Positions 1,931 through 40,094 of a stretch of DNA of 64,000 nt are shown piece by piece. This stretch comes from Octopus vulgaris (taxonomy: Eukaryota). A program made the position numbers and the translations under genes. The notes beneath the pieces are model-generated. The model saw nothing but the letters and a program-made list of their open reading frames with translations. It was not told the DNA's origin and searched no databases. The stretch is taken from the NCBI GenBank assembly GCA_951406725.2, contig OX597819.1, forward strand, positions 12,338,001-12,402,000, written 5' to 3'. Within the stretch, counting starts at the first letter, position 1. Every line of letters begins with the position of its first letter.

Positions 1931-1968
1931 CTTTGGATTTGTTTTGGTACCTCTGAGATCTCGACCTC
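1931..1968 (-). CDS. Gene A exon 6 (GGRDLRGTKTNPK), SRA finger loop; the gene continues beyond the left edge
   Basis: CCAG acceptor, GTAAGT donor, 38 bp, phase 1/0. GGRDL follows YTG as in SRA domains. Confidence 0.9.
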
Positions 1969-2170
1969 CTGGTAATATGAAGAAGAAAGGATTCAACGAT
2001 AACAACACAAATGTAGAATGGTTTAGTAAAGCTAATAAGTAACGTCACAATATATTCCTGTTGTTGATTGTTTAGATTGCTACACTAGTGGTCTAAGGAC
2101 TATTGGTTTGTAGGCGCAGTTACCCCACTCCCATAGTGGGTTTAAACACACTGGCACTATTGGCACTAGA

Positions 2171-2382
2171 CGTGGAGGCGCAATGGCCCAGTGGTTAGGG
2201 CAGCGGACCCGCGGTCATAGGATCGCGGTTTCGATTCCCAGACCAGGCATTGTGAGTGTTTATTGAGCGAAAACACCTAAAGCTCCACGAGGCTCCGGCA
2301 GGGGATGGTACGAGCAGGCTGTACCGTTGATTCGGATCAACCGGAACCCTTGTCGTCGTAACTGACGGAGTGCTTCCATCCC
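2171..2382 (+). mobile_element. SINE family 2 (tRNA-derived head GGAGGCGCAATGGCCCAGTGGTTAGGGC) with a 12-bp TSD
   Basis: ATTGGCACTAGA at 2159-2170 and 2383-2394. Same head on the minus strand at ~3330-3620, ~48150-48490 and ~48760-49040. Confidence 0.85.
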
Positions 2383-3807
2383 ATTGGCACTAGAGTGTGA
2401 GATTCTGGCACGAACCCTTAGGACTATCTCGGCATTGAAACACAAGACTATGAAGATGTAACCTGTTACAGTAGCAGATATGAATTCACACACAGAAGAC
2501 TACGGCATCCATGCATCAAACCATTTTCATTTATCATTCAGCTGGTGTATATATGTGCAGCCACATTAAAAGGTATATAAAGTCACAGCCTAGTTTTATG
2601 TATTCTTTATACCGGGTTTCTTGTCAAATGATATTACTCTGAGTAGAGTCACATTAGGTGGAATACAACCCATTCACCTCAAAGTTCTTATTTAATGTCC
2701 ATGCTCTATGATGGCTTATGTTGGACAGTTTGATAAGATCCAATATGTCTAAGCACAGTTTCTGCAGCTGGATGCCTTTCCAAACACCAACTACTTTACA
2801 GATTATGCTGAGTGCTTTGTTTTTTTTCATGCTAGCTGCACTAGTGAGGTCACTATGCAGCCTGCAAGACAGCGAACCTCCAGTAGAAGTAACGTTAGGC
2901 TAGATGAGGGTTAAAATGTGAGAGAAGGGGCCAAAGCAGAACAGGTTTCTCGCTGTAGAGGAGCCACATGGCTAAACATTTTAGAAAAGATGGTGTGAGT
3001 GATCAGTGTGAAGCTGGAAAGAAAGATAAAAGTGTGGTGATGCAGTTTATGGACGGACCTTCAGGGTATGAGAGGAGTGGAAGTGAGTGGGGAGACAGAG
3101 TAGGATGGATGAAAGGGTGAAGTGATGTAGGTGACCAATGTAAAGATTTGAGTGGGGCTGAAGGGTGGATAAGGGGTGGGAGATGACCAATGGTGTACAA
3201 ATTGGGGGAGGTAGCAGGAGTAGAGCAGCAGAATAGTAAGAATTATATGGTAAACAGATGAGGGATGATATGTAGTAGAGTAGGTTGCAGGAATGTTATG
3301 AGTAGTTCAAATCTATAATAAAATATCATCACGTCACCATCCAGTCCATCAGATGTAGTTACACATTGCTGGTCACAATGCGTTCGCATTGTTTTAGCCT
3401 TTGAATGACGCCACCCCGCTGGCTAAGCGAGCAGGCCAACAGAAGAAGAAAGAGTGGTGAAAGAGTACAGCAGGGATCACCCCCGCCCCCCCGCCAGAGC
3501 CTCGTGGAGCTTTTAGGTGTTTTCGCTCAATAAACACTCACCACGCCCGGTCTGGGAATCGAAACCGCGATCCTACGACCGCGAGTCCGCTGCCCTAACC
3601 ACTAGGCCATTGCGCCTCCACATAATAAAATATATGAAATGGAATTGACATCTGGATTTGAACCCAATACAATGATAGAGGGATAAATTTGCTTTGATTA
3701 GGAACAATACCAGTCTGTAGGAAGAACAGACATTTTGATGGTGGTGGTCATGCTGGTTCTACCACCACTACATTAATTAAATTAGAAGAGATGAATGAAA
3801 GACCTAC

Positions 3808-3923
3808 CTGCTCCTGTGTATGTGAAGCATTCTCCAAAATCTAAATCATCTTCATAGCCACCTGACAGAGCAATAGAATATGCTCCTTCTGTTTCACTTC
3901 CATGGATACCAGCAACTGTAGGT
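3808..3923 (-). CDS. Gene A exon 5 ([39 protein letters not shown]), SRA 5mC-pocket region
   Basis: CTTCAG acceptor, GTAGGT donor, 116 bp, phase 2/1. Carries the hallmark SRA motifs AGIHG, GAYS, GGYEDD and FTYTG. Confidence 0.95.
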
Positions 3924-4431
3924 CTGAAGAAGACATGTGTGATTAAGAAAGAAGAAAAACCACCAACAGCAATAAATCTAAACTATTTTCAAACATTTAA
4001 AATAGTGTGTGAATGGACAGCATAACGCACGAGACCCCCTCTTATCCAAATAAAGTATTCCTCATTTATGATACATGAATGCATTCAAATTTCTGGGATT
4101 TTATTAATTCTTTAAACTAAGTAATGCATTTAGCAGCAAGAAATTCCAAGGGATTAACATTAAACCCAAGTAACCCCAAAGAATTCCATTGTTCATTGTT
4201 CCCTTAAACAGATAGATGGTAACTTTAGTAGGTCAAGAACAGATTATTACAGCAAAAGGTATCCCAATAATCAAGAGTAACTTGTAAAATTTTCTTTTCT
4301 TGATCAATATTGACAAAATTGTAATTCTATTTCTATATAAAGATATCATTTGGACTCTAATCAGACACAATCAATTAGAACTAAGGCCAATTAAAAAAAC
4401 TGACTATTTCATCTTTATTGTAATCTATCTA

Positions 4432-4822
4432 GGTGCAGGAGTGGCTGTGTGGTAAGTAGCTTGTTTACCAATCACATGGTTCCGGGTTCAGTCCCACTGC
4501 GTAGCACCTTGGGCAAGTGTCTACTATGGCATCGTGCCGACCAAAGTCTTGTGAGTGGATTTGGTAGACGGAAACTGAAAAGAAGCCCTTCGTATATATA
4601 TATATATATATATATGCGTGTGTGTTTGTGTTTGTCCCCCTAGCATTGTTTGACAACCGATGCTGGTGTGTTTATGTCCCCGTTACTTAGCGGTTCGGCA
4701 AAAGAGACCGATAGCATAAGTACTGGGCTTACAAAAGAATAAGTCCCAGGGTTGAGTTGCTCGATTAAAGGCGGTGCTCCAGCATGGCCGCAGTCAAATG
4801 ACTGAAACAAGAGTAAAAGAGT
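4432..4822 (+). mobile_element. SINE family 1 (tRNA-like head, CORE-like segment, internal TA/TG microsatellite, GTAAAAGA tail)
   Basis: A/B-box-like head (GTGGCTGTGTGG...GGTTCAGTCCC), CCTTGGGCAAGT core, more than 15 copies in the window. Confidence 0.9.
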
Positions 4823-5045
4823 ATCTAGAACTACATTATTGAATGTGTCCAGCTGTTTTTAAGAAAAGAAGATATCTGGTTGCTATCTTTAGCATGTTGA
4901 GTGACCACATAGAACAAAACCAATCAATTTAGCTGTCAAATTCTTATTCTCTGTAAGTTCAGAAAACAAGCATATTTGGCCGAAATATGTGTGAATTGGT
5001 AACTGAAGTTCTCACTCTTCCAAGTATAACAATCAAGTAACTTAC

Positions 5046-5106
5046 CTGTGGATTCCAGCATAGCTACACTCCACTCGGGACTGCCACCAGGTGCCGACTT
5101 CTACAC
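5046..5106 (-). CDS. Gene A exon 4 (GVEVGTWWQSRVECSYAGIHR), SRA domain
   Basis: CAG acceptor, GTAAG donor, 61 bp, phase 1/2. Aligns with the UHRF1-type [21 protein letters not shown]. Confidence 0.93.
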
Positions 5107-5490
5107 CTGTCAGATACGAGAAACATGATAAATTTTATTGACAAGGTAGGTAATAAATAAAAGCTATTATTTATTAAGGAATAAACATTTATGTCACTCT
5201 TTGACTAGTTTCAATTACTGGACTGCAACCATGCTGAGGAACAACCATCAAAGGTGTTGGTCACTTACACTGACTCAAGAATTTTACTTCTTGGTAACTT
5301 TATAACAAGGAAAAGTAAAATTGACCGAGGCATAAAGGGAGGTAATCACAATGTAACAGAACAGCTAAATTAGAAGCAAGTTCAGGTGGTGAGCTGGCAG
5401 AATTATTATCGCCACAGAGAAAATGCTTAGTGGCATTTCTTCTGATTATGTTTTGAGTTCAAATGCTGCCAGGGTCAATATAACTGACAT

Positions 5491-5855
5491 AGGCGTAGGA
5501 GTGGCTGTGTGGTAAGTAGCTTGCTTACCAACCACATGGTTCCAGGTTCAGTCCCACTGCATGGCAACTTGGTCAAGCGTCTTCTACTATAGCCTCAGGC
5601 TGACCAAAGCCATGTGAGTGGATTTGATAGATGAAAACTGAAAGAAGACTGTCGTATATATGTATGTGTGTCTGTGTATGTACACCCAACATCGCTTGAC
5701 AACCAATGCTGGTGTGTCTATGCTTCCGTAACTTAGCAGTTCGACAAAAGAGACTGATAGAATAAGTACTAGGCTTACAACGAATAAGTCCTGGGGTTGA
5801 TTTGCCTGACTAAAGGCGGTGCTCCAGTATGGCCAGTCAAATGACTGAAACAAGA
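5491..5855 (+). mobile_element. SINE family 1 copy
   Basis: Colinear with 4432-4822. Confidence 0.85.
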
Positions 5856-5976
5856 GCATACCTCCTCCTCCCAAATTGCTGGCCTTGTGCCAAAATTTGA
5901 AACCAAATTACAAGCAAGTTTGTCTGATGCTCCATGGAGTCTGGAACCTGCTTGCCAAACTCAGTTTTATTATATA

Positions 5977-6380
5977 CTAGCAGTATCGCCCAGCGTTGCT
6001 CGAGGTTTGTAAGGGAAATAACTATATAAGTATTTTTAGAGATGTAAAGTATAATAGCCATCTCAATATGGCTAACCACAAAGGGGGGAGGGGTTACTGT
6101 AGCTTTCTACGTTCTGAGATTTAATAATAAATTTTTAGAGAGTTACTTCCCTTATATAATAGCGAAAAAAATGCATTAAAAATGGGAAAAATTGATGGTA
6201 AATTTTTTTTAAAATTGTAGACTCATCGTAGACGCGCGCTAATTCCCAGAAGGGCTCGATATGAATCATGACTATAAGATACCCGGTTTTTGGTTAAACT
6301 GCACCGCAAAATGTGGGTGTAGTTAGGAATCTAAATCGTAGGAGACAGACAGCACACAACCTCTCTTTTATATACAAAGA
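5977..6380 (-). mobile_element. Non-autonomous Helitron
   Basis: 5' TC start, subterminal GC hairpin, CTAG 3' end, inserted at A|T. Confidence 0.8.
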
Positions 6381-6689
6381 TTTCTGTGTGAATACGTTTC
6401 AGTCTGGACAAAAAGCTGGTAGGCAACGGAAGTTTTAGCAAAGACATCACAACAAATATTGATGAAATGGTTTCCCCTGTGTGAATCCATTAGTGATTAG
6501 ATAAATTTGTAGGTATGGCTGTGGGAGGTTTGCTCCCTAATTACATGATTTCAGGTTCAGTCCCACTGTATGCCACTCTGGATTGGTGTCTTCTATAAGC
6601 GCTGGGCTGACTACAGCTTTGTAAGTGGAATTGGCAGATGGAAACTGAACAGGAACCCTACAAACTGCAGCACGGACAACTTTCTAGGA

Positions 6690-6830
6690 CAGTGGTTCTC
6701 AACATTTTTATTTAAACAAGTTTCTCCATGGACCCCTTTTAATATGCTTATCCTTATGTGTATGTGTGTATGTGAGTGCGAGTATATATATATGTATATA
6801 TATGTGTATGTGAGTGTGAGTATATATATG

Positions 6831-6885
<55 letters not shown>

Positions 6886-7333
6886 ATATTGTGAAGCCGC
6901 ATGTCTCAATGGTTAGAGCGTCGAGCTTAGGATCGTGAGGTTGTGAGCTTGAATCCCGGACTGGGCTGCATGTTGTGTTCTTGAGCAAGACACTTTATTT
7001 CACGTTGCTCCAATTCAATCAGCTGTAGAAATTAGTTGTGACATCACAGGTGCCAAGCTGTATCGGCCCCTTTGCCTTTCCCTTGGATAACATCAGTGGT
7101 GTGGAGAGGGGAGGCCGGTATGCATGGGCGACTGCTGGTCCTCCATAAACAACCTTGCCCGGACTTGTGCCTGGAAGGGTAACTTTCTAGGTGCAATCCC
7201 ATGGTCTGTGTCATGACCGAAGGGGGTCCAGATATATATATATATATCCGAGACCCTGAATTTAGTTCATGGAGTCCTAGAACTACCTTTGTGGATGACT
7301 AAAGGACCACGGACCCCAGGTTGGAAACCACTG
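6690..7333. mobile_element. hAT (Charlie-like) MITE
   Basis: TIRs CAGTGGTTCTCAAC / GTTGGAAACCACTG; 8-bp TSD TTCTAGGA / ATCTAGGA. Confidence 0.8.
6893..7228 (+). mobile_element. SINE family 4 (tRNA head, TTGTGTTCTTGAGCAAGACACTT core), nested in a hAT MITE
   Basis: Second copy at ~25563-25880. Related heads on the minus strand at ~20790-21030, 41105-41283 and 42010-42340. Confidence 0.75.
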
Positions 7334-7747
7334 ATCTAGGAGGACAATAACTCTGAATAAGAATACACAGAAAGTAATGGGGATAGAATGAAATATAATT
7401 TGTTCATGACTATGTGTAAAATGAATGGAATACTTCAACTTTCACCTAACTTGGACATAGAATTTTTAAAAATCATTGTTTTATTGCCCTCTTTTCTATG
7501 CTTGCAACCATCAAATGAAATTCATTGAGGCAGATTTTCTATGACTAGATGCCCTTCCTGTTATGAGCTGTCCAAGGAAGGTGTGACACGTAAAAAGCAC
7601 CCACTACACTCGCGGAGTGGTTGGCGTTAGGAAGGGCATCCAGCCGTAGAAACTCTGCCAGATCGGACTGGAGCAGCCCCTGGCTTCCCAGACCCCGGTC
7701 GAACCGTCCAACACGTGCTAGCGCAGAAAACGGATGTTTAAACGATG

Positions 7748-7895
7748 ATCATACAAGCAGTGTCCTTCATTGCCAATCTTCCCTGAAAACATATCTGAGC
7801 ATGGATATGTGTGTGTATATATATATATATATATATCTCCATGCTCAGATATGTTTTCAGGGAAGATTGGCAATGAAGGACACTGCTTGTATGAT
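7748..7895. repeat. Perfect inverted repeat with 58-bp arms around a (TG)/(TA) spacer
   Basis: 7748-7805 is the exact reverse complement of 7838-7895. Confidence 0.92.
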
Positions 7896-8119
7896 GGTTG
7901 GGAAGCAAGCCCCTCAAAATCACAGCAATGCTTGCACCTATAAACCACACAAAGAGAATAAAGAGACACCTGTCCAAACCGTCATTTGCTGTGGGATTGA
8001 ACCCAGAATCACTGATTATGAAATTGAACTTCTTAATCCTACAGAGACATCTAAGGAAAGCTATGATAGTGACAAAAGCTACACAGAGTATTGCTATTAG
8101 CAAGGATAAGAAGCCTCAC

Positions 8120-8222
8120 CTTCAATTGAACCAAATGTATTTTCTCGAAACTGAGGAATTCTCTTAGCTGGAGAAGGTTTATCCTCATCAAGAAGTTCAA
8201 TAAAATTGTTTTCAGATGGTTT
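8120..8222 (-). CDS. Gene A exon 3 (KPSENNFIELLDEDKPSPAKRIPQFRENTFGSIEG), start of the SRA domain
   Basis: TTTTCTAG acceptor, GTGAGG donor, 103 bp, phase 0/1. FGSIEG corresponds to the SRA 'YGPIPG' motif. Confidence 0.9.
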
Positions 8223-9307
8223 CTAGAAAAAACAAGAAAATTGTTAAAATTAGGGTCAGGGGGAAATCGTACTAATAATAAATTATTTTTACAGGTGAAG
8301 TTGCTGAAGACTTGGTATTTAGAGTTGTGTTTCTGACTTTTCGTTTCCTTAGATGGTTTAGCCAGGACAGACTTCTGTATGTGACCTTTGCAGATCCTCC
8401 CAGACTGGCAGATAGCAAGATTAATGCACTTCAGTTTAAATGAACAATAATCACTTTAACCCCCCACCACTTTTTTTTAACCATATTTCTGTTGGAATTC
8501 ACTGCCTTTCTTTCAATTAATTTTGAAACTTTTAAAGAATATAGTAAAATAACTTTTTTTTAAATTGGAAGCAGGAACATGAATCAACATGGAATTTGGA
8601 CGTATGTTTAAATTTAGATCATATCAACCCTTTAGTTACCATATTTCTGCTGAAATTCACTGCTTTTGTTTCAATTAATTTCAAAAATAAAGAACTTATT
8701 AAAATAACTGCCATTATTAAACTGGTATTTGGAATATAAATAAACATGAAGTGTTTATAAGAGGTTTTAATTAAAATCACTTAAGACATGAAGTTGGTAT
8801 CCTAGAACCATAAGTGATCACAAAAACCAGATTGGCATCATCATCATTAAGTGTTCGTTGTCCATGCTGGCATGGATTGGACAGTCTGACCAGGGCTGGG
8901 AAGCTGAGGTGCTGCACCAGACTCCTGTCCAATTCGGCATGGTTTCTATGACTGGATGCCCTTCCTAACTCCAACCACTCCAAGAGTGTAATGGGTGCTT
9001 TTATATGCCACCAGCATAGGTGCCATTCATGTAATACCAGTATCTGCCACAACTACAATTTTACTTGGCCAAAGGTCTTGGTCATTTGTCATTGCCTCTG
9101 TGCAAATTTTTGAAGGCCTTTTTTATTATTTTTTGTTAGTAATTAGGTTTATTGTAAAGTTAAAACAACTTTTTTATCTTAAAACAAAGACATTGTGATT
9201 GAAGGATGAACTGTAAACAAATTCTTGGAAGGCTGATAGGTTTTACTGACTTAGATAACACAAGACCAACATTTTCCCAGAAGAATAAACAAAAATTATT
9301 TTCTTAC

Positions 9308-9457
9308 CTCTCCTCTCAATCTACAAGAACGCCTCACAGCACCAACACTGATTGAACCTTCATCTGTGGTAGAGGGTACAGATGATCTTTTGGAAGCCTT
9401 TGGTGTCCACAGTGCTTTGCGTTTAATTGGTTTGTGAACCACTAGAAATTTTTCCAG
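9308..9457 (-). CDS. Gene A exon 2 (LEKFLVVHKPIKRK...VRRSCRLRGE), basic linker with an RRSxRL motif
   Basis: Polypyrimidine-TAG acceptor, GTAAGA donor, 150 bp open frame, phase 0/0. Confidence 0.85.
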
Positions 9458-10646
9458 CTAAAAGGAAAGAAAAAAAAAGTGGGGAATTAAGGCCAAGTTG
9501 TAAGCATTATTTTCTAGCAAAAAAATCCACATCAACTGTGATATCTGCTCTGCATGCATTGTGAACGTATATCACCATAGTCATTGTAAAGTAAATCATC
9601 ATCATTTAACGTCCGCCTTCCATGCTAGCATGGGTTGGATGGTTTGATTGAGGACAAGGCGGCGAGCTGGCAGAAACGTTAGCACGCCGGATGAAATGCT
9701 TAGCGGTATTTCGTTTGCGTTACGTTGTGAGTTCAAATTCTGCCGAGGTTGACTTTGCCTTTCATCCTTTCGGGGTCGATAAATTAAGTACCTGTCCGCA
9801 CTGGGGTCGATGTAATCGACTTAATACCTATGTCTGTCCTTGTTTGTCCCTTCTATGTTTAGCCCCTTGTGCGTAATAAAGAAATAGGTTTGATTGCGGA
9901 CTGGTGAGCCAGATGGCTGCACCAGGCTCCAATCTGACCTAGCAGAGTTTCTACAGCTGGATGCCCTTCCTGACGTCAACCACTCTGAGAGTGTAGTGAG
10001 TGCTTTTACATGCCACCGGCAAGAGGGCCAAGCAGGCAGTACTAGCAATGACCTCACTCGAATATACAATGAACTACAGTGCCTTCTACTATAGCCTCGA
10101 GCTAGCCAAAGCCTTTTGAGTGGATTAGGTAGATGGAAACTGAAAGAAGCACGTCATATGTGTGTGTTCTCTCGCTTTACACTCCTTTAACCTAGTGGTT
10201 CAGTGAAAGAAACTGATGGAATAAATACCTAGGTTAAAAAAGAACAGAGGTTAATTTATTTGACTTAAAAAATTCAAAGTGGTGCCCCAGTATAGCCACA
10301 GTCTAATGACTGAAACAAGTAAAAGATAAAAATATCCTAGGAAAATCTCTTGGGCAAAAAGTTGGGAACCTATTTTATTTTGCAGATTTTAATAAGTGGG
10401 CAAGTGTCCACCAAAAATGAAGTCTAGCATGGTTCTAAATATTATCATCATAATCATTTAACGTCCACTTTTATACTGGCATGCGTTGGATGGTTTAACA
10501 GGAACTGGCCAGCTGAAGAACAACTCGGGCTCATTAAGTTATTTAGACTTTTGAAGCTTTTTAGCAAAGCAGGTGGTAAAAAAATAAATAATACTCATTC
10601 TTGTGCAGACAAAAAAAGCAATATATTACATGGAATTTTTATTTCA

Positions 10647-10977
10647 TCTTTATATATAAAAGTGAGGTCGTGTGTTGTCTGTCTCCTACGATTTAGATTC
10701 CTAACTACTCCCACATTTTCCGGTGCAGTTTAACCAAACCCACATTTTCCGGTGCAGTTTAACCAAAACCGGGTATCTTATAGTCGTGATTCATATTGAG
10801 CCCTTCTGGGTATTAGAGCGCGTCTACGATGAGTCTATGATTAAAAAAAAAATTTACCATCATTTTTTCCCATTTAAAATGCACTTTTTTGCTATTGTAT
10901 AAGGGAGGTAACTCTCTAAAAATGCTTATATAGTTATTTCCCTTACAAACCCGAGCAACGCCAGGCGATACTGCTAG
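10647..10977 (+). mobile_element. Non-autonomous Helitron
   Basis: A|TCTTTATATATAAAAG ... CCCGAGCAACGCCAGGCGATACTGCTAG|T, with a ~29-bp internal tandem duplication. Confidence 0.85.
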
Positions 10978-11559
10978 TTGAATATAAAGCAAAGGCATAA
11001 TTTTCATGAGAGAGAAAAAAATAACTTCTCATTAGAAAAATTAAAAAAAGGATGCATTTTCTATTTAGCTGATGAGGTCTAATAACATCGAAACATATAG
11101 AATTGCTTCCCTTGATCGCCAAAAGAGAAAATATTTAATGACCACACTAGAAAATTTCTTATTAGCTCCGTCCTGCATTAAATATACTAACACTAACTTT
11201 ACTACTTTATATTTGGTGACTTGCTTATCTGGATATGTATTTATAACCAATAAATGGTTTACTTGCAAAACAGCTGTCACCTAAAACCAATATTTTCGAA
11301 TCGACAACACGTAGTCGCGCGAACAGCCAAAAATATCTCCCGAATTACGCCCCTTTCGTTACTGCATCTATTCTGAGATGCTCTGTGTTTCTTTCAATTA
11401 CTTTAAGTATAATAAAGAATTTAGTAAAATAACTTTGTTATCGTTAAGTTAGTGTTAGGAACATAAATTGAGACTAAGGTTTGGTGGAAGATTTTAATGC
11501 AAAACTTATGAAGACAAGACATTTGTACTCAGAGCCAGAGCCGGGTTGGTGTAGAAGAT

Positions 11560-11799
11560 AAAAATTTAGCATAAGAAAACAGGCGGAAGAAAATTTGAAG
11601 AGGGACGAATGAAATGGAGGCCCATGACGACAGCCAACGCTACCTGGCGGAAAACAGATTTTACTAACTTGCAAGGAACGACAACTCTCTAAACAATGGA
11701 TTATTTATCACACTGCCAGCAACCGTGTTCACCGGAGTTTTAAGCTTTATATATATATATATATGTGTGTATATATATATATATATGATGAGGAAACAG
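11560..11799 (+). promoter_or_regulatory. Putative promoter and non-coding first exon of gene B
   Basis: CpG-richer unique region around 11.3-12.8 kb, with GGCGGAA motifs and a good donor (CAG|GTATGT) at 11799/11800. Confidence 0.35.
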
Positions 11800-14700
11800 G
11801 TATGTGGCGAAATTATATCGGTCCCTCTCTCTCTCTCCCCCCACCTCTGTTAAGTTAGTGAACTAATCTCGATTAAGAACGAGGCCCTACATGTGAATAT
11901 ATAGGTGTGTATGTGTATGTGAAAAGAAGGACTTAAAGCCCCGAGCGAGTCGAGAGCAGCATCTCGACTCCTGTTCATCATTTGTTTTTTAACTAAATGT
12001 TATATATCGTATCGTTAAATGGTCCTTAGTAACAGCAGGAGACGCTATTTCATGTCATGTCTCTTCCGCCGAGTCTTCTTTTGTGTCTATCTCTCTCTCC
12101 TCGGCCAACTTTAATCCCTCGTTTTTTTGTCTTCTTGAAGCATTTATCAATCGCTGCTGGCAACTTTTAAATTGATACATTTATTGTGAGTCGGTAACAA
12201 TCCGGAGGTTACAAGAAAATAAATATTGGTTGAAGAAGAACCATAAATCGAAGCCATTCAGGAACGCATGCTGGAAAGATTAACTAAAAAACATTTTGTG
12301 GTCTTATCGAAAATTAACGGCTTAACATCTTTCATGAGAGAAAACTTTCTGAAGAGAGGAGGGGGCAATCTTTCGTCTCTAGTAGACCTTTCCGTCGATT
12401 TCCGTATTTTTTTTTACATATGGGCTTGCGGGAACTTTTGAAGTAATATACATACATATACACATACACCGAGTAAAAAATTTCAGTTATCTCTCTCTTT
12501 CACACACACTAACAGAAGCACTTCACTTACACAATATACTGTGTCTCCCACACCCCATCAAACACACACACACACATGTACATCAATGCTTCCCATGCAC
12601 GGTAACTTCAAAAGAACTTCCCTCGTCATACAATCGCTTTCTCTTAGTCTCTTTCGCTCTCATTACCTCAAAAGTTCTGAAGAGAGGAGGAGGAACGAAC
12701 GTGTGGCTTTGGCATATTTTTTTCAATTCCAAGTAAAAAGAAAAAAAGGATGAGCGGAAGTAATATGGGAATCGCTAAAGATGCTCAGCTTTAAATCAAT
12801 CGGAAAACGATCCACCGAGAAAATCTTTTCATAGTTACTCGGCCTGCTAGAAAGAGTAGCCAGACCTTCCTCGAATCATACATGTTTGAAGCATTATTAT
12901 TTCTGTAAGGATCGCCTGTCAAATGTGCATTTTAATGATGATTGTGGGAGAAAGTTAATTTAAAAGACTTGCCTGCCATTTCTAGCAGACGTGTTGTCTT
13001 CACATGGAACATGTATTAATAACACAGGCTCCATGTGGCAGTTTTAAGGGAAGAGGGTTGTGCCGACACTGGTTCCAATGAAAAGTGGGTTTTTTTTTAC
13101 AACGTGGAACCATTTTCTGAGTGGAATACAAACTGTTCTGCCGATCTTGCCCAAGCAACCACAAAAATAAGCAAACATCAGGATGTGTTTTGTACGTGGG
13201 AAAGTTCCGCTGGTATTTCCCAGCATTAACAAAAATAGCCGAAGGACACAGATTTATCTTCGTTATAATAATAATTACACATACCTACACGAGAGTGTCC
13301 ACTCTGTTTTCTGAGGCATACCAAGTTTACCTATATTTAATGTGTATGCGTTCTCAGATTTAAAAAAATATATACATTTAAAGCTAGCTGCATAATCACA
13401 AAATTCCACGTTCGATCCCAACTGTGCGGAATGTGGGCCAAATGGCCTCTGCTCTCATTTCGGTTTCACGTAAAATACCTTGTTAAAGTTTAGTAGAAGA
13501 AACTATGCAGAAGACTGCAGCGTGGAAGCACCGGTAGAAAAAAAAAAGTCGGTGCTCTCTATGTTGCCACATCCATAACTTAGCGGGTCAACAAATAAAT
13601 CTTCGGACTCCAATAACAAACTAGGGAACAAATCCTCATTTTGCGTTGGATTTTCCAAACTTAACATCTCGCCACTTTATTCCAGTCTTTTGTTATCTTT
13701 GTAGGATCCAGCTTCCTAAGATCAACTTTCTATGCCTAAACCCTTCCACAGGTTTCTTCTGCTTAAATTTCTTGTCATTTCTTTATCCAACTCACCATCC
13801 GAAAGCAGCACACGTCCTTACCAGCTCAAATCTTCTCAACATCTGATTCCTCTTTTACAGTTTCCCCCACCCCCTTCCTCTAGGGCATGAGTTAAGCATT
13901 TCCTTTCACCTTTTGCACAACCCCCCTGTTCATTGCCTAGCTTTTATTACCATGCAAACATCGCACCAAGTACCACACAATTTGCTCTTTACCCCACCCC
14001 CAACAGAGGTAATTTTTCTCATTACATTCTCACTTTGGCTACTCTGCTTTTGCGGTACCTGCCAACCCAAACAATTTCATAGGTGCTCTTAAAAGTCCTC
14101 TGCCAGTCTGCTTGTGATCTCCACTTCATATCTTGTCCAGAGTTCACATTGGACAGGCTGTATGGATTTACTACATATTTCATACAGTGGCTACTTCTTC
14201 GATTGCCGGGAATCTTTTCGTTATTGACACGTTTGTCTTAATTTTCGATTTACATTTACATATATGCTCTGAGAGATGGCAGTCACAGACGTGGAATCCT
14301 GATTAAGAAGTTCAGTCTTACTGTGTGGCAGGAGGCATTGGACAAGTGTCTTTTATCATTGCCTTGGGCCAACCAAAGCCCTGTGAGTGGAACGTATATA
14401 TGTATGTGTGTGTGTTGTGTGCGCACACGCCTCCGTTCTGACATTGTGATAGATGTAAACAAGTGTCCCCTCATACAAACGGTGTCGTTCATTTCCATTC
14501 TTCCAAGCGTGTCTGATCAAACACATCTGGCCATAGAAAATTTGCTTTAGCATGGAAAAGTGGACGTTAAGGAGTGTCCGCATATACACACAATCAGCCC
14601 ATCTGCATATTCACACAAAATGCCAGAAAGCGAAGAACAAACCACATTGACATCTTTAAAAAAATATATTTATAAAAATCAAGTTAAACTCTGTGGCAAA

Positions 14701-16026
14701 TCTCAGAACCTACACAAAAAGTGAAAGAAAAAAAAAGTAAATGCCTCCATGGTAACCATCATTTGACGTCCGTTTTCCATGCTGGGAGGACTGCACCAGG
14801 CCCGTCGTCTTCTTTGGCGTAGTTTCTAGGGCTGGATGCCTTTCCTAATACCAACCACTTTACAGAGTGAACTGGGTACTTTTAATAATTATATACTACC
14901 TGTTCATTAAAAGCCTTTTAATTTTGAAGGCTTGGTAAATGAAACTCATTTTTAAAAAAATCTTGTCTTCAGATTTCGTGTTGATAAATAGAATTGGTTG
15001 CTAAGTTGAAATGAAGATCGTTATAGGCAATGGTTTAGCAACACCTTTTTCTAAACCATATAATTAAGCATAAAAAACCCATCTAAAAGTATTCTGCCCA
15101 TTTCTTTCATTTCCAATTATTTTTTGTCGCTTTTCAAATAATCCAATAAACTTTTTATTTTCCACATATCAATTCCTAAAAATCACTGATTAAAAGTTGA
15201 GATCCTCTTATTTCACTTAATGTCTTTCATTTTTTTCGAAGGTGGTAAGTTATATAGTCTATGGGAGATTTGACTGCTACTCTGAACCAGTTGAGCACTC
15301 AAATGGAAGAAAGCACCTCTGATTAGTCCTGACCAAGTACTTCCTTCAGGCCATTCTGGTTGTCAGATTTGAAATATTAGATTTTGAATTCTTTTCTCAA
15401 CAGGTTTCATATTAGTTCTCATCTAGACTGAAGCAGTACAAGTTACACTTTTATATTGCTTATCTTGTTTACACTTGATGAAAAAAAACTTTTTCAAAAT
15501 TTGAATTTTTTTTTTTTTTGTTTATCATCATTTAACGTCCATGTAGGCATGGGGGGTTGGATGGTTCGACAGGATCTGACAAACCAGAGCACTGTATCAG
15601 ACTCCAATGTCAGCATTGGCATAGTTCCTATGGCTGGATGCCCTTTTCTATGCCAACTGCTTTACAGAGTGCACTGTGTGCCTTTTCCTGTGGCATCAGT
15701 ACAAGTGAGATCACCAAATAACTTGCAAGACATGTGGGAGTGTGGTATTGAGGGAGGTAGCTTTACGCCAGGTGTCAAGAGGTTGAAAGATAAGAAAGAC
15801 AGAAACAGGTGTCTTGTTCAAGAGAAGATACATGGCTGGCTCCTGTTGGGAAGACAGGAGAGAGAATAGAGACGGAGGATCAGAGAGGGTGGGTGCTATA
15901 ATCATTTTGCTTCTGCCTGTCAGGATGTTGCTCAAAACTAATACAATTGATTTTTCTTACAGATTTATCAAATGACAATAACAAGAAGGAGTGAAATGAA
16001 ATAAGAAGAGAAGGAAGTGCCTCAAA

Positions 16027-16740
16027 ATGCCTCAGGTTTTACTTGAAGAAACTCACCGAAACCTAACATATCAAGAAAACAAACACGATGATTTCCTTCT
16101 CATTGAAGTGGAAGCAATTCTCCGACACCCAGACCCAGCAAAAATTACACTGTCCCCACCACTCTTCCCCAAAGGTGGTGATGTTTACCTTTACAAATCT
16201 GGTCCCCATGACAGAAGAGTCAAAGATAAATACTGGTGGGTTAACAGAGGGAACAACTTCCATTCAAAAAGTCAAAAGCGCCATGCCATTATGAAGACCT
16301 ACTTCAGTCTAAAAGACAGAAATGGCAGCAAGAAAAGTGATTGCCTTAATGGATTCAGGCGCCACATCTACCGCCTGGCGGATGCAAAAGATGACAGGAG
16401 AACATTAATGCTTGTACACTATCTTGGAGATGAGAAACTACACACAGCTATCCCTCATGGTAACAGCAAGCACAAAAAAGGTCAGAGTGAGAGCAGCAGC
16501 CATCAAGTAAAGACAATGCGAAGCAATGACTTGGACACAGCAACAATGACCGCCTCCTTACAGAGTTTGAATGCAGCTAAAAATGAACTGAGAACCTCCG
16601 ATGGTGTTGGAAGCCACGGCAAGATTATAAAGTCGCCAATCAACAACTTGAAGCAACCAAATTTTACCATTCAAACATTAAAAGACAATGGCAGTTCAGA
16701 TGATTTGAGAATCTGTTTGGAGAAATTAAAACACAAATCG
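16027..16740 (+). CDS. Gene B first coding exon: CG-1 (CAMTA-like) DNA-binding-domain protein
   Basis: Acceptor TTTTTCTTACAG ending at 15962, AAA-ATG start. Motifs PKGGDVYLY / KDKYWW / FRRHIYRL / LVHYL occur in the order of CG-1 PQNGSMILY / KDGYCW / FHRRCYWL / LVHYL. Donor TCG|GTAAGA in phase 0 at 16740; unspliced, the ORF would end at 16815. Confidence 0.8.
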
Positions 16741-16973
16741 GTAAGACTTCTTGTTTCAAATAACCTTTTCGGTTCTCCAGCAAAAGAGCTGCAGCAGAGC
16801 CAAAAGATATTTTAGAGCAAAATTGTTTCTCTTGTTGAAAATTTGAAGTGCTGTGTTCATTTTCTTAAACATTCAAATTTACAGAGATGTACTTGCATAG
16901 CAAGTGACCTGATCCAAGATTGTGTTCTGGAACGAAAACATTTGCAGCGTGGAAGGTGTTTATAAGCCGTTTC

Positions 16974-17179
16974 AGAAACACACAAAAAGCCGTTCGATTC
17001 ACTTCAACATTTAAATTTAATTTGCCAAAATATTTTCGTTGCTTTGAGACCGTGACCTGTTCTCTGAGATGCAGCACGGAATTTTGCCAGTGAACAGGTT
17101 GCGGTCTCAAAGTGATGGAAATATTTTGATAAATTAAATTTAAATGTTGAAGTGAATCTAACGGATTTTGTGTGTTTCT
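16974..17179. repeat. Imperfect inverted repeat with ~89-bp arms
   Basis: 16974-17062 pairs with 17092-17179; mismatches are mostly CpG-type transitions. Confidence 0.88.
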
Positions 17180-19042
17180 TAAATCAAATTTACAAATCCA
17201 AATGAAATATAGATATGCATTAATGCTTATATTCTCCTCCATCACTGTCCGATCCCCACACATCATCTCCCTATTTTCTGATCTAAGGGTTTATTGCTAT
17301 TTATCCCCTTTTTTCTTCACCCCCACCATCCCTACATTCACTCCTACCCCTATCTCTAACCACCTGTTGCTCTCCTCTCAAACTAAGGAATTTATCCACC
17401 CACCCTGCCCAATCGTGTGCATTCCCTCTCTTACACTCACCTTCTTGTACCCTGAAAGTAGGCACCAACACCCGGTCAGCACCATCATTGTGCTTTCAGT
17501 TTTTTCCCACCCACTTTTATATAATATGCAAGGTAGCTATATATCTCCTCTACAGCAAGACACCTGTGCCCCTGTCCTTCTGCCTTACTAAAATGTGGCA
17601 TCAAGCCACCTACCCCCTCCTACTACAGCCCTACTCTGTTAAAGGTTGTTTTTCTCATTGTCTTCTAAGTTACTTGGTCACCTCACTAGGGTTAGTGTTG
17701 CCAAATGGCTGGCATGAAAAAGACAAAACCATAAGATTGTCCTCTGGCTTGCTGGATGCTGAGTGACAGTGATGATAATTTGCATGTAGCTGGTCACCAT
17801 AGGAACAGAAAGCAGAAGAAATGTAAACAAATGAAGAACGTTCCACAAAGAACATGCTTAGAAAATTTGAATTGAAAACATTGAGAAAGTGGTTATTTCC
17901 ATAATAGTAAACCTGAGAGCCAAATGTCGGGTTTTGATTAAGCTTTGAATATTAAGCATCTCAGACCCCTGGGCCCTTGCGTCAAACTTTACCCTCCAAC
18001 TGGGCTCCTGAGAAAAAAAAAAAAAAAAAGTTGCACTTACAAGCACGGTTGTATGGTAAGAAGCTTGCATCCCAACCACATGGTTCTGGGTTCAATCCCA
18101 CAACACAACACCTTGGGCAAGTGTCTTCTATTATAGCCTTGTGAATGAATCTGGTCGACGGAAACTGAAAGAAGCGCATCGTGTATATATTTTGGTGGCA
18201 CATAAAAAGCACCATCTGAATGTGATCGATGCCAGGCCCACCTGACTGGCTTCTGTGCAGGTGGCACATAAAAAGCACCCACTACACTCTTGGAGTGGTT
18301 GGTGTTAGGAAGGGTATCCAGCTGTAGAAACACTGCCAGATCAGACCAGAGCCTGATGCAGCCACTGGCTTTCCAAACTGCAGTCAAACTGTCTAACCCA
18401 TGCCAGCATGGAAAGCAGATGTTAAACGATGATGATGATGTGTGTCTGTGTTCGTCCTTCCCACTCCATCGCTTGACAACTGGTGTTGGTGTGTTTATGT
18501 CCCCAGAACCTAGCAGTTTCGCAGAAGAGACCGATAGAATAAGTACAAGGCTTACAAAGAATATTTCCTGGGGTTGATTTGTTTGACTAAAGGTGGTGCT
18601 CCAGCATGGCTGCAGTCAAATGACTGAAACAAGTAAAATAAATAAACAGATGCAGCAGAGGCTGTGTGGTAAGTAGCTTGCTTACGAATCACATGGTTCT
18701 GGGTTCAGTCCCACTATGTGGCACCTTGGGCAAGTGTCTTCTACTATAACCTCGGGCTGACCAACACCTTGTAAGTGGATTTGGTAGAAGGAAACTGAAA
18801 GAAGCCCATTGTATATATGAATATATATATATATATATGTGTGTGTCTTTGTCCCTCCATCACTTGATAACCTATGTTGGTGTGTTTATGTCCCCAAAAC
18901 TTAGTGGTTTGGCAAATGACTGAAACTAGTAAAAGAATACAGCTCAAGATTAGGGATCAGCTGAATCTTCTCTTTCCTATGCTGTTCCTCACCAGTTTAT
19001 CAAGAATCCAGCAGAGACGACATTTAATATATTCCCGCCATA

Positions 19043-19448
19043 AGCGCAGGAGTGGCTGTGTGGTAAGTAGCTTGCCTACCAACCACATGGTTCTGGGTTC
19101 AGTCCCACTGCGTGGCATCTTGGGCAAGTGTCTTCTGCTATAGCCTCGGGCCAACCAATGCCTTGTGAGTGGATTTGGTAGACGGAAACTGAAAGAAGCC
19201 TGTCGTATATATGTATATATATGTATGTATATGTTTGTGTGTTTGTGTTTGTCCCTCTAGCATTGCTTGACAACCGATGCTGGTGTGTTTACATCCCCGT
19301 CACTTAGCGGTTCAGCAAAAAGAGACTGATAGAATACGTACTGGGCTTACAAAGAATAAGTCCCGGTGGGGTCGATTTGCTCGACTAAAGGCGGTGCTCC
19401 AGCATGGCCGCAGTCAAATGACTGAAGCAAGTAAAAGAGTAAAAGAGT
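19043..19448 (+). mobile_element. SINE family 1 copy (part of a cluster with copies at ~18040-18645, 18650-18935 and 20146-20548)
   Basis: Colinear with the family consensus. Confidence 0.88.
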
Positions 19449-19606
19449 ATAGCAGGAATATCAGGGTTAAGCTGTTCTTCTACATTTTAACTTTTCTGTG
19501 CAGGGCTGCAAATGTTTAGCCCCGTTGAGGCTCAGTCTGAAAAAGCACCACAGCAGTGGTACCCTGTCTTCTTGCTTCGTAACACTGTACCCGGTTACCC
19601 ATAACA

Positions 19607-19997
19607 TCTCTTCTCTCTCTATATAAACGGCAGTTTGTCTGTGCGTGTTTCTGTGTGTCTGTTTGCTTGTACCCTCACTCTGACCACGGCTTTCAACCGA
19701 TTCTGATGAAACTTGACACACACATAGCCCAATGTCATAATTCAAAACTAACGCAGCGAAAACTTTGAAAAGTTCCCCCAGTTCTGAAAAAAATCGATAA
19801 ATTCGACATGGGGTCGAGAATCTGAAACCCAAACCACAGACTGTCTAGGGGACGCAACTCCACCTTTTTTAACTCTCAAAAAAAAATTTACCATCATTTT
19901 TTCCCCATTTTTTTGCTATTTTTTGGCTATAACTCTCTAAAAATGCTTTATAGTTATTTCCCTTACAAACCTGAGCAACGCCGGGCGATACTGCTAG
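19607..19997 (+). mobile_element. Non-autonomous Helitron with a different 5' half and the same 3' end
   Basis: Shares the final ~120 bp and CTAG|T with the other copies. Confidence 0.75.
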
Positions 19998-21109
19998 TTA
20001 TTAATAAGGCACTGAGCAAGCAGAATCATTAATAGATTTAACAAAATGCTCAACAGCATTTCCTCTGGTGTCTTATGTTCTGCATTCAGCCATCACAGGG
20101 GACACAATTGCTTTTTATTTTTCACTAGTTTAATAAAATAAATAGGTGCAGGATGTGGCTGTGTGGTAAGTAGCTTGCTTACCAACCACATGGTTCTGGG
20201 TTCAGTCCCACTGCATGGCACTTTGGGCAAGTGTGTCTTCTACTATAGCCTCGGGCTGAACAAAGCCTTGCGAGTGAATTCGGTGGACGAAAACTGAAAG
20301 AAGCCCATCATGTATATCTATGTATGCGTGTGTGTGTGTGTGTGTGTGTCATTGTGTTTGTGCGCCCCCCCACCCCCCCATCGCTTGACAACCGATGTTG
20401 GTGTGTTTATGTCCCTGAAAATTAGCAGTTCAGCAAATGAGACTGATAGATTAAGTACAAGGCCTACAAAAATAAGTCCTAGGGTAAATTTCTTCGACTA
20501 AAGGTATGCTCCAGCATGGCCATAGTCGATTGACTGAAACGTGTAAACAATTACCAGTCACATACGAGGCAAAGGGGGGGGGGGTCAATGCAATCGACTT
20601 CCTCCCCTCACAATTACTGGCCTTGTGCCATACTTATTTAGTCAATAGGGATATTGTTTCTTCTGATTCTCGCAGAATACAGGATGCTACTTTTTAGCAA
20701 GTCAACAATACATATCTCAATTCTAATGCTTTTCAACCTCATAGATAGCATCTTGGGTATTGTGCCAAGTGCACTGAGCTCCCCCCCACTCAAGCCATGC
20801 CAAACTCATGAGGGCCGGTTTCCTGCTTTCAATGGCGATATATATTTACCCACCTGGACGGGACGCCGGTCTGTCGCAGGATTATTCATTTTTGCTGGTT
20901 GAGTGAACCGGAGCAATGAGAAAATGAAGTGTTTTGCTCAAGAACATAACACGTCGCCTGGCCCACGAATCGAAACCACAATCTTAAGATCATGGGTCCA
21001 ACACCCTAACCACTAAGCCACACATCTCCACAAGTGCACTATTTACTACAAGACCAATTGATACATTATTTACATTTGACAGATATTTGTTCCCATCTTG
21101 TTTATTGTT

Positions 21110-21155
21110 AACACAATGTTTCGGCTGATATACCCTCCAGCCTTCATCAGGTGTC
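21110..21155 (-). ncRNA. Minimal hammerhead ribozyme motif (second copy)
   Basis: Same core on the reverse strand. A partial third copy lies at ~50943-50975. Confidence 0.62.
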
Positions 21156-22999
21156 TTGGGGAAATTTTCAACCTGGGTTTTCATTCCTAAAGTATTTTTC
21201 GATATTATTAATTTTATTATTATTCAGGTCACTGCCTGGAATTGAATTTGGAATCTTGGGGTTAACCACTATGCCATATGCCTGTGGGCAATTATGGAGT
21301 GAATTTTAGGGCTTATAATTGTCACCTTTCACAAATCTCCCTATCTCTCTCCTGTTATTTCTTAATTCCTTTGGTATCCATCTCATCAAATGCTATTGCA
21401 AAGTCTATGATGATAAAGTTATTTTTCCCCTTTGTTCTCTTCAATCATACCTGGTCTCCTTGCTTCAATAGCATTGTCAGTCTTTATGGGGGAGATCCCC
21501 ATAAAATCCTGTAATTATTATTGTCCACAGCCTCTGTCTCATTATTATGCTTGAGTCAATAGCATGATATGAAGGAGATTGACTGCTATTTCCAACAAGT
21601 CAAGCCACGACATACAGACATCCATCGTGTAACTGTTTTGTTCCCAGATTTCTGCTGAAATACACTTTGTTGCAATCAGTTTTCAAAATAATGGAACAGT
21701 TCTTCAAATACCCGTTATTATTTAGCCAGTATTTGAAATATAGGATCACAGGATCCAGCTTTTCCTTAACACCAAGCAATTTACAACACGTACCAGGTGC
21801 TTTTTTTTCGTGCTACTGACACTAGCGAGGTTGCCATGCAACTTGAATGGCTGACCCAGGTCAGCCCTGAATGGGCAATATCCCGCTTTAATTAATTGCG
21901 TGCCCACGGCGCCAGAAACCGATTCCAAGAAGATCGACCACCCAAGAGGAAAGACTCAGCAACGAAGTGGTTAGTGACTGGTCTGGAGGAAGAGACTACA
22001 ATATGAGGACGAGGTGACCGTGGCTCGATACGATAGTAAAGACAGATCTATTATCAAAAACGTTCCAGCCACGACCATCTCGTAACTTTTTTTTCTTCTT
22101 CAATGTATCAAAGATTACATTATCCCCTGTTGTGCTCTATAAACATAGGGTTGTGATATGCATGGATTAAGCTGCTATTTTCTTAGAAAAGTTGTAAGTT
22201 TGGTCGATGTTGTTTAGCTCTAGGACAACCCCAACCCAGTAAATCAATGATCAAGAGCATGCCAACCGTGACCCTCTCGTCTTTTCACTATCAACTGATG
22301 ATTCAGGGATAGCAATATATGACGTTATTTTCTAAAATGATGGGGTGTGCTTCGAGGGTGATTTGGCTACTATTTCTATCATGTAGAGCAACCACTTAAC
22401 AAGAGGTTCTTAGTAAAAGCATTATGCCGGCAGTAGATAAAATATTATGGCAATCTATTTCATTTCCGCAATACAAAAAAACAGGTGGCCGTTGATTTAG
22501 TCATTTATTGTCTTCCCATCTTTCCCCCAAAATATTAATTTTGAATGTTTTAGCAGGAAATAGAATCTGCAACAATACGAGATGTGCGGTGAAACGTTTT
22601 CTTTTTTTAAAAATAATTTCACAACCGAAAACTTTTTTAAAATCTACGTTTTATAAACAACAGTAAAGCAATTCGCTCTACTTTTTAAAATAAATTCGTT
22701 GATAAACAACAAATTTTCTTATTTGAAACATTGTGGTTTTGTAAATAATTTTAGAAATGACACTTATAAAGTTGTTAGGAGTTTAAAAAAAAATATTGAA
22801 TATTTAAAAAAATTACGATGAAAAAGTTCCCTATCTTCTTAAGATATGAAAATTTATGCTTTTGACAAAGATAAAAGCTAAAACTTCATTGAAAAAGCAC
22901 GTGTGTTACCGGCTTAGCCGGTTTAACCCTGCTTAACCGACGATTTAAGAAGAGGAAACAAAGAAAAGAATAACTTAATATGGACGAAAAACAACTTAC

Positions 23000-23083
23000 A
23001 GAATGACGGATTCCCAGCTCAGCCAAAACCCTCCGATTGTCGGCGAGATTTTTCAGACGAAGTTTTTCGTATTCGCTGCACAT
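23000..23083 (-). CDS. Gene A (SRA/YDG-domain protein) coding exon 1: MCSEYEKLRLKNLADNRRVLAELGIRHS
   Basis: AAAA-ATG start context, 28 codons ending at a GTAAGT donor in phase 0, matching the phase-0 acceptor at 9457. CpG-richer promoter-like DNA lies just upstream. The link to exon 2 across a 13.5 kb intron is inferred. Confidence 0.75.
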
Positions 23084-23099
23084 TTTTCGTTTTTAGAAA

Positions 23100-23340
23100 A
23101 AGAGATTAAAACCGATTTAATCTTTAACAGGAAAATATATCAGAGAGAAATCTGATGAATTTCAATTAAAAGAGTCTTCTTTTCGACTCCGTCAGAGAAT
23201 TGTGTGGCTGTAAATACAGATACACGTTCCGTGTGGGGTCCAGTCTCCCGCGAAATTTATGTCACGTGCTACCATATCGGAATGTTGATTGGTCGTTTGT
23301 ATTATCTAGGCGTAACGGCGGGAAAACAACTGCTTCTATA
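23100..23340 (-). promoter_or_regulatory. Putative promoter of gene A
   Basis: Locally CpG-richer, repeat-free DNA upstream of the ATG, with an E-box (GTCACGTG, ~23261) and a CCAAT box on the minus strand (ATTGG, ~23288). Confidence 0.45.
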
Positions 23341-24417
23341 ACTCCACCTAATGTCATAGTGACAACAATTTTGAAATTACTTCCGTTTAAAATAATTGCA
23401 GATATTCTCTCCTTTAAATCACTGAATAAGATCGATTCTCAATATTTTTTTTCGTTTACTCTCTATTTCCTATTTCCCTGTAAACATCTGTTTTATTAGT
23501 GAGCGACTATATAAGTTCGGATAGAATATGTATGAGATCTTGTTGAAACCTATTTCTTTATTACCCACAGAGGGGACAAACAAGGACAGACATAGGTATT
23601 AAGTCGATTACATCGACCCCAGTGCGTAACTGGTACTTAATTTATCGACCCCGAAAGGATGAAAGGCAAAGTCGACCTCGGCGGAATTTGAACTCACAAC
23701 GTAACGACAGACGAAATACCGCTAAGCATTTCGCCCGGCGTGCTAGCGTTTCTGCCAGCGGTTTTTAACCTCGACACCTGGAATAAAACGAAATCGTCGT
23801 TAATAAAATATTGACAAAATGAAGCTTGAAGAATAAATTTAAAATATAAAATAAATTCTTATTTATCGACAGATTTCGATTCCAGTTGTAGATCTTTGTA
23901 TAGACATAAAACATTTATACAGCTTTAGTCCTTTTGGCCGCTCATTTTGTAAAATTGTATACTGTATAATTCTCCAGAAGAGATCTGTAACTGTCTCTTA
24001 GATATTACACATTATTTGTTGGTTGAAAATAAATTAATAAAATATATAACTAATATTTAGATGTAAAAGCAAAGGTGACGATTCCATATCAGAAAGTAGT
24101 GCCATGTCATCTTAGTCGAGTATTTCCGGAAGTTTTTTTTTATATATATTCAAGCCATGCTATTCTGTTTTTGTTGCTTTATCGCTTAATTTCCTTTCAA
24201 TGTTGTTCAATATGGGACATAGCTTCCGTTTCGTATGAGAAATCAAACAATTTGAAAATTGATGACTTCAACAAGATGAGCGAACACACACACCATCATC
24301 ATCATTTGAAATGCCTTTACGGTGACATGTTGCTAAGTGCTCAGCCACTTGCATGTTAAATTCAAGAGCAACTAGTTCCATTGTCATCGCAACGGGTAGT
24401 GCCCCACTCTCTGTGTG

Positions 24418-31381: not shown

Positions 31382-33458
<2,077 letters not shown>

Positions 33459-39874: not shown

Positions 39875-40094
39875 CTGAAACAGAAAAAGAGACAAGTGAA
39901 TATTTATTAGCAAAATACTCTCAAATAGTTTCTTTTATTATCTATAAAATTGCATTATTAGAATGAACAAAGACAACTAAAATGTCACTAGTAAAACTGA
40001 GCCCTATGGACACATAAGAGCCAGTTTCCTGGTTTCCGTGGCATTTATATATTTATCCATTGCTATTATCATGAGGCTTTGCTATTACTCATGG

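Follow-up and report, generated by a model that had tools for sequence, protein, structure and literature searches.

The window analysed here is a 64,000-nucleotide stretch of Octopus vulgaris DNA (contig OX597819.1, positions 12,338,001 to 12,402,000). Its minus strand carries a gene whose product joins an N-terminal helix, related by profile comparison to the N-terminal helix of CDCA7, to a single SRA domain. We consider it probable that this protein is an adaptor: the SRA would read hemimethylated CpG, the helix would dock on the CC2 helix of the remodeller HELLS, and the remodeller would be brought to newly replicated methylated DNA. A wider proposal is made with less assurance, as slightly more likely than not. 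It holds that an ancient animal-fungal family, to which the octopus gene belongs, is a second hemimethyl-CpG HELLS adaptor, formed by attaching the CDCA7 helix to an SRA reader, that stands beside CDCA7 in most invertebrates and replaces it where it was lost while HELLS and a maintenance methyltransferase persisted (Cryptococcus, Daphnia, barnacle). In vertebrate extracts HELLS needs CDCA7 to be active, yet CDCA7 is missing from several lineages that retain HELLS and a maintenance methyltransferase. The family is a concrete candidate for the stand-in in such lineages.

Gene structure and transcript support

Six coding exons of the gene lie in the window. All have GT-AG borders, and they splice in frame to 184 amino acids without a stop, as the initial annotation had read them. 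The features of the gene are as follows.

23084..23251, minus strand: 5' untranslated part of exon 1, to which contigs extend in two runs (to 23243 and 23251); CpG-rich promoter region
23000..23083, minus strand: coding exon 1, residues 1-28 (GT-AG splicing, contigs, database protein)
23009..23077, minus strand: N-terminal helix, residues 3-25, CDCA7-related by profiles, with a structure model and predicted docking on HELLS CC2
13910..13933, minus strand: alternative 24-nucleotide first coding exon of the annotated helix-less isoform P0515 (annotation)
9308..9457, minus strand: exon 2, basic linker, residues 29-78 (splicing, contigs, C4 copy)
9317..9334, minus strand: RRSCRL motif, residues 70-75, of the conserved R-x-S-x-R-L type (motif counts against shuffles)
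8120..8222, minus strand: exon 3, end of the linker and start of the SRA (splicing, contigs, Pfam)
5046..5106, minus strand: exon 4, SRA (splicing; matches the 58 bases left unlisted between exons 3 and 5 of the contigs)
3808..3923, minus strand: exon 5, SRA thumb and methylcytosine pocket with Y156 and Y168 (splicing, contigs, alignment)
1931..1968, minus strand: exon 6, first half of the extended finger loop (splicing, alignment)

Three further exons were found 0.7-3.4 kb past the window start (G000:C6:12337302-12337149, 12336701-12336592 and 12334831-12334571). Exons 7 and 8 encode N185-L-R187 and the remaining SRA, and exon 9 the acidic tail and the stop. The nine-exon frame of 358 amino acids is the same, residue for residue, as database entry P0516 ("Octopus vulgaris UHRF1-like"). 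A query with exon 5 retrieved P0004 from Octopus bimaculoides, which is also 358 amino acids long, contains only an SRA and has the same join of exon 1 to exon 2.

The initial annotation had left the 23000/9457 junction, which unites helix and SRA in one gene, to be confirmed. It was bridged by one contig in each of 4/4 sequencing runs from four studies, presumed to be RNA, with none on record as RNA among the holders listed. In three of the four runs the bridging contigs continue to exons 3 and 5. Contig C4 carries a partial copy of the gene that lacks introns; the join is present there too, which supports it at the DNA level. Around exon 1 (22501-24000) the observed/expected CpG ratio is 1.4-1.5. 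No join of the alternative first exon of P0515 was found among the contig pieces listed. The octopus helix-SRA gene is genuine.

The C4 copy (L046, G000:C4:62792765-62792848 and flanks) is processed and 3'-truncated. It comprises the 5' untranslated region, exons 1 and 2 and the start of exon 3, is 93-95% identical to the gene and has a proline within the helix. Because two of its residues are still those of O. bimaculoides, the copy probably predates those two residue changes in the gene.

The SRA reader domain

Pfam analysis of the full 358 amino acids detected SAD_SRA at 108-265 and nothing else. The absence of UBL, tandem Tudor (TTD) and PHD domains noted in the initial annotation thus extends to RING, since the completed frame has none after the SRA. 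The domain begins about residue 105-108 rather than after ~140 amino acids as first estimated, and the region behind it is an acidic tail of low model confidence. The octopus SRA aligns with that of UHRF1 in sequence (E 2e-49) and has the same fold (Foldseek E 1e-19). In UHRF1 the 5-methylcytosine (5mC) is stacked between Y466 and Y478, R491 touches the CpG and N489 senses the opposite cytosine (PMC4615792). The aromatic methylcytosine pocket of canonical UHRF1/2 is present in the octopus protein, with Y156 and Y168 spaced 12 residues apart as are Y466 and Y478.

The NKR finger had been described as replaced. Instead it is extended: by alignment it retains its arginine behind a 6-residue insertion, and the next exon continues N-L-R-T-A. 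R187 sits 6 residues further along than R491 of UHRF1, and N185 lies two residues before it. The gap placement of phmmer aligns the arginine alone to the NKR finger; spacing instead pairs N185 with N489, and read this way the finger probably keeps N-x-R. The insertion was modelled with a predicted local distance difference test score (pLDDT) of 53-56. To assess conservation, 143 complete SRA domains were counted among 165 family proteins examined. GGY.D is present in 143/143, FT[YF]TG in 142/143, and the insertion followed by N-L-R-T in 142/143.

Cryptococcus has a single Uhrf1-like SRA protein, which binds hemimethylated DNA selectively (Catania et al., 10.1101/149385). It supports 5mC in parallel to histone H3 lysine 9 (H3K9) methylation, and in cells that lack H3K9 methylation its loss lowers methylated sites from 31% to 11% of wild type (10.1101/149385). 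The octopus SRA is predicted to bind hemimethylated CpG.

The N-terminal helix

The octopus helix was modelled at residues 4-22 with pLDDT 90-96. A family helix profile was built from 65 helices of 66 aligned near-full-length members, picked from the best 120 of 202 matches. At a threshold of at least 10 bits it matched 43/150 zf-4CXXC_R1 representatives (maximum 40.2), and 0/3000 shuffled, 0/150 reversed and 0/120 HELLS sequences. Fourteen canonical UHRF1 sequences scored at most 0.1 bit. New, mostly fungal members scored at least 10 bits in 74/98 cases, the 24 misses including N-terminally cut records.

The comparison was then reversed with a profile that started from one vertebrate-type CDCA7 helix and was extended inside the CDCA7 set only (58 rows). 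This profile scored at least 10 bits in 63/66 of the aligned family proteins and in 71/99 further, mostly fungal ones; the octopus helix scored 28.0 and that of C. neoformans 19.8 bits. None of the controls reached 10 bits (0/1650 shuffled, 0/165 reversed, 0/120 HELLS). Profile-profile alignment of the two helices by hhalign gave a probability of 98.6. An R-x-S-x-R-L-type motif lies within 120 amino acids of the helix in 59/65 family proteins and in 11/43 helix-bearing CDCA7 proteins, compared with ~1.3 in shuffles. Judged by profiles in both directions, the octopus helix is related to the CDCA7 N-terminal helix, as the initial annotation had supposed.

Other resources were searched for the helix. 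Pfam has no model for it, and a PDB profile search gave no match except ribosomal L20 (E 0.5). The ESM Atlas returned no usable match for residues 1-80 when SRA clusters were skipped. With the C. neoformans member P0500 it returned SRA clusters only at 0.9 or above, and one viral cluster at 0.80 that we treat as a lead only. In viral contigs 2/39 candidate stretches were SRA-related, both HNH-like and without the helix. A search of the octopus genome with CDCA7 protein, together with a 343-kb local scan, yielded no CDCA7 helix exon and no further helix gene; the top unrelated score in the scan was 8.7 bits. An unnamed protein, P0293, combines the same helix with zf-4CXXC_R1 and a chromodomain. 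Its architecture suggests, as a further sign, that the helix is modular.

Predicted complex with HELLS

Residues 1-40 of P0004 were modelled with residues 138-915 of O. bimaculoides HELLS. The complex scored 0.73, 0.72 and 0.71, and the best of three controls 0.00. The runs agreed in at least 79% of contacts, with partner pLDDT of at least 71. In a microbial calibration the mark for this score was reached by 51/78 solved and 2/108 mismatched pairs; among eukaryotes it was reached by 39/65 solved pairs that had no similar older complex and by 2/126 unrelated pairs.

The predicted interface on HELLS comprises residues 185-206, 358-362, 388-390 and 526-533, that is, the CC2 helix and segments of SNF2_N. 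It fits the published CDCA7 site, where the CDCA7 helix binds CC2 and SNF2_N segments as confirmed by deletion co-immunoprecipitation (Wassing et al., PMC11343034). The same helix-CC2 contact has been predicted for Arabidopsis (PMC12718391). On both partners the interface columns exceed their neighbours in conservation (0.74 vs 0.51 and 0.74 vs 0.53). Recall of a solved helix-HELLS complex by the prediction tool is unlikely, because the PDB holds CDCA7 as zinc-finger fragments only; full-length HELLS is present there, and no chain with the CDCA7 N-terminal helix was found. The model thus predicts that the octopus helix docks on HELLS CC2.

A family separate from UHRF1

Family members were taken from two listings (best 120 of 202 and best 120 of 668 matches). 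Among the matches listed, the named animals are sponge, cnidarians, molluscs, annelids, bryozoan, crustaceans, sea spider, leafhopper, echinoderms and amphioxus, and the named fungi are chytrid, Glomeromycota, Tuber, Saitoella and many basidiomycetes. None of these named members is a vertebrate, the listing being no test of absence. The order of helix, linker and SRA is constant from sponge to Cryptococcus. The octopus protein shows the family layout: helix, basic linker, a single SRA with a GR.L.G+6 residues+NLRT finger, and an acidic tail.

SRA identity to octopus is 71-79% in non-cephalopod animals, 72% in the chytrid and 57-69% in other fungi. UHRF1 of the same genome reaches 64%, and 13 canonical UHRF1 frames found in metagenome contigs reach 56-62%. 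In a 55-row SRA tree, which was rooted with long branches and has no plant VIM/SUVH rows, a long 100/100 branch splits 14 canonical rows from all 38 family rows. The split from canonical UHRF1 is clear by sequence. The phylogeny did not recover the family as one clade: with three long Gymnopilus rows included, the 38 rows fall on one branch side in 0% of bootstrap trees, but a tree that keeps them on one side is not rejected by the approximately unbiased (AU) test (p=0.2).

Another SRA locus of the octopus genome, on C8, has an NKR finger with a TTD upstream and is canonical UHRF1. C1 carries a CDCA7 zinc finger, and exons of HELLS type are found on C17. Because canonical UHRF1, CDCA7 and HELLS are all present, the idea that the octopus gene is a truncated or broken UHRF1 was rejected. 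A pseudogene was rejected as well. Since the gene coexists with canonical UHRF1, the helix-SRA family is a separate paralogue. At L009 (G000:C26:22231493-22231663) the last exon of CDCA7 is present a second time, in degenerate form and containing a stop.

Daphnia has several members (P0078, P0085, P0113 and P0115-P0120), and those examined have GRAL, not GRDL, in the finger; rust proteins P0429 and P0433 have GRAL as well. D. pulex is without CDCA7 in the published table (PMC10538959).

Co-occurrence with HELLS, methyltransferases and CDCA7

Eight species with a named family member are covered by the available portion of the Funabiki source table (PMC10538959), whose UHRF1 column was deduced from the legend: O. 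bimaculoides, Nematostella, Dendronephthya, Owenia, Amphibalanus, Daphnia pulex, C. neoformans and Kwoniella mangroviensis. All eight (8/8) have HELLS and DNMT1 or DNMT5, and 3/8 have no CDCA7 (C. neoformans, D. pulex and Amphibalanus). These counts are of presences only and carry no enrichment test. The table files the Cryptococcus member (XP_024511987, our P0409) under UHRF1, and its octopus row bears a different accession. Databases and presence-absence tables thus file a distinct paralogue as "UHRF1".

Proposed function and alternatives

In the proposed mechanism the SRA would flip the 5mC out of hemimethylated CpGs that are accessible, presumably in linker rather than core DNA. The helix would recruit HELLS through the CC2 helix and the first ATPase lobe, and docking may relieve HELLS autoinhibition, as proposed for CDCA7. 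Neighbouring nucleosomes would then open for the maintenance enzyme, with better access for DNMT1/UHRF1 in animals or DNMT5 in fungi as the expected outcome. If this is true, Cryptococcus "Uhrf1" works like CDCA7, not UHRF1, and the family offers a mechanism for its H3K9 methylation-independent route to methylation. It would also suggest that the HELLS-binding helix is a movable plug common to different readers. The parts are known and one fungal member has been characterised. No description of an animal SRA-only family, its helix or an SRA-HELLS link was found in the literature searched, most subscription papers lying outside that search, and the available part of an annelid methylome paper does not mention such a family.

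Several points weigh against the adaptor proposal. Shuffled, reversed and HELLS sequences are weak nulls for charged helices, and the helix profiles were scored on zf-4CXXC_R1, family and control sets rather than database-wide. The CDCA7 seed helix is one that we take, from its position and conservation, to be the published HLBH. The helix exon of the octopus's own CDCA7 was not found in 40 kb of examined DNA. Calibration of the complex score excludes peptides and disordered chains, and family alignments were not used in the prediction. Close cousins of true partners also pass, so that the score shows likeness to CDCA7-type binding only. In the SRA the finger insertion is poorly modelled, and phmmer secures only its arginine. 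The DNA-binding data come from the fungal member, and 5mC is almost unaffected when Cryptococcus loses Uhrf1 alone (10.1101/149385). Five named smut proteins belong to the family (three from Sporisorium, one each from Kalmanozyma and Ustilago trichophora), and their relative Ustilago maydis has no DNA methyltransferase (PMC10538959; PMC7862722). Finally, Neurospora HELLS (MUS-30) acts in genome stability, not methylation (PMC4714748).

The smut and Neurospora observations raise the question whether the protein is a HELLS adaptor outside maintenance methylation. Its SRA would then recognise bases that are damaged, oxidised or flippable for some other reason, or the protein would compete with CDCA7 for CC2 and tune HELLS. 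The altered finger loop fits this, and octopus, Nematostella, Dendronephthya and Owenia also keep CDCA7, so both proteins would share one HELLS site. We regard it as unlikely, since the Cryptococcus member selects hemimethylated DNA and sustains 5mC when H3K9 methylation is lost, and the methylcytosine pocket is near-invariant across the family. Somewhat less likely again is that the SRA guides a maintenance methyltransferase or shields hemimethylated sites, the helix binding a partner other than HELLS or being a chance look-alike. At ~23 residues the motif is short, and charged helices are common. A link to the helix or to HELLS was not found in the available part of the Cryptococcus account (10.1101/149385), and Allomyces and Catenaria have an SRA protein, possibly outside the family, but no HELLS in the Funabiki table (PMC10538959). 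Against this stand reciprocal profile scores that far exceed all controls, a complex that falls on the published CDCA7 site and whose controls scored 0.00, and the downstream R-x-S-x-R-L-type motif common to the family and some CDCA7 proteins.

A truncated or mis-modelled UHRF1, or an exon 1 foreign to the SRA gene, we consider highly improbable. Databases do label the protein UHRF1-like, isoform P0515 skips exon 1, and family monophyly was not recovered on the long-branch-rooted tree. However, the exon 1-2 junction is bridged in all four runs and in the processed copy, canonical UHRF1 has its own locus on C8, and the family keeps one domain order and splits from canonical SRAs at 100/100.

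Other features of the window

A plus-strand exon at 15959-16740, inside intron 1, is transcribed and has a weak CG-1 domain match (E 3.5e-5). Its donor is in phase with an acceptor at 26544 (26544-27881, plus strand), which suggests a join, and a plus-strand gene may span both the promoter and the first exon of the SRA gene. One distant relative is on C3. A 497-codon open frame at 38441-39934 (minus strand), without a Pfam match, is likely the last exon of an upstream gene. Fragments at 32740-33357, 40209-40604 and 42799-43131 resemble the reverse transcriptase ends of long interspersed nuclear elements. Transcribed short repeats are abundant across the window.

Comparison with known systems

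The octopus protein shares the SRA fold and pocket with UHRF1 and UHRF2. It lacks UBL, TTD, PHD and RING and therefore would neither read H3 nor ubiquitylate. The 6-residue finger insertion marks the family, and the helix is absent from canonical UHRF1.

Cryptococcus neoformans Uhrf1/Uhf1 (CNAG_00677) is, like the octopus protein, SRA-only, without Tudor or RING. The published account treats it as a reduced orthologue of UHRF1 that works with Dnmt5, whereas the octopus gene stands beside a canonical UHRF1. P0500 (UHRF1_CRYN9, C. neoformans H99), equated with CNAG_00677 from its database label and the statement of the paper that there is one Uhrf1-like protein, has the octopus-type helix, basic motif and finger insertion, with an SRA 59% identical to that of the octopus protein. 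Its computed extinction coefficient is 38,360 compared with 40,920 published for the tagged protein, two tyrosines short. The missing tyrosines could, we presume, come from the tag.

WDR76/Cmr1 is a known partner of HELLS/MUS-30, a role that is proposed for the octopus protein, and has a WD40 domain, not an SRA. It is bound by Neurospora HELLS (PMC4714748), and human WDR76 and HELLS co-purify (PMC11331135).

CDCA7 and CDCA7L share with the octopus protein an N-terminal helix of the same profile, a disordered basic linker and a C-terminal reader, known or predicted, of hemimethyl-CpG, and the octopus protein is predicted to use the same HELLS CC2 site. The reader of CDCA7 is zf-4CXXC_R1; in the octopus protein it is an SRA, Pfam having detected SAD_SRA and no zf-4CXXC_R1. 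The UHRF1 SRA binds hemimethylated CpG in linker but not nucleosome-core DNA, and the CDCA7 zinc finger binds the core (PMC11343034). By analogy the octopus SRA would bind linker DNA by base flipping, not core CpGs. The initial annotation's reading of the protein as a functional analogue of CDCA7 is supported by the exon 1-2 junction, the lack of a RING, the helix, the predicted HELLS complex and the hemimethyl-selective fungal member, and is limited in the access of a UHRF1-type SRA to core CpG. Because of this difference in reach, the octopus protein would complement CDCA7 rather than copy it.

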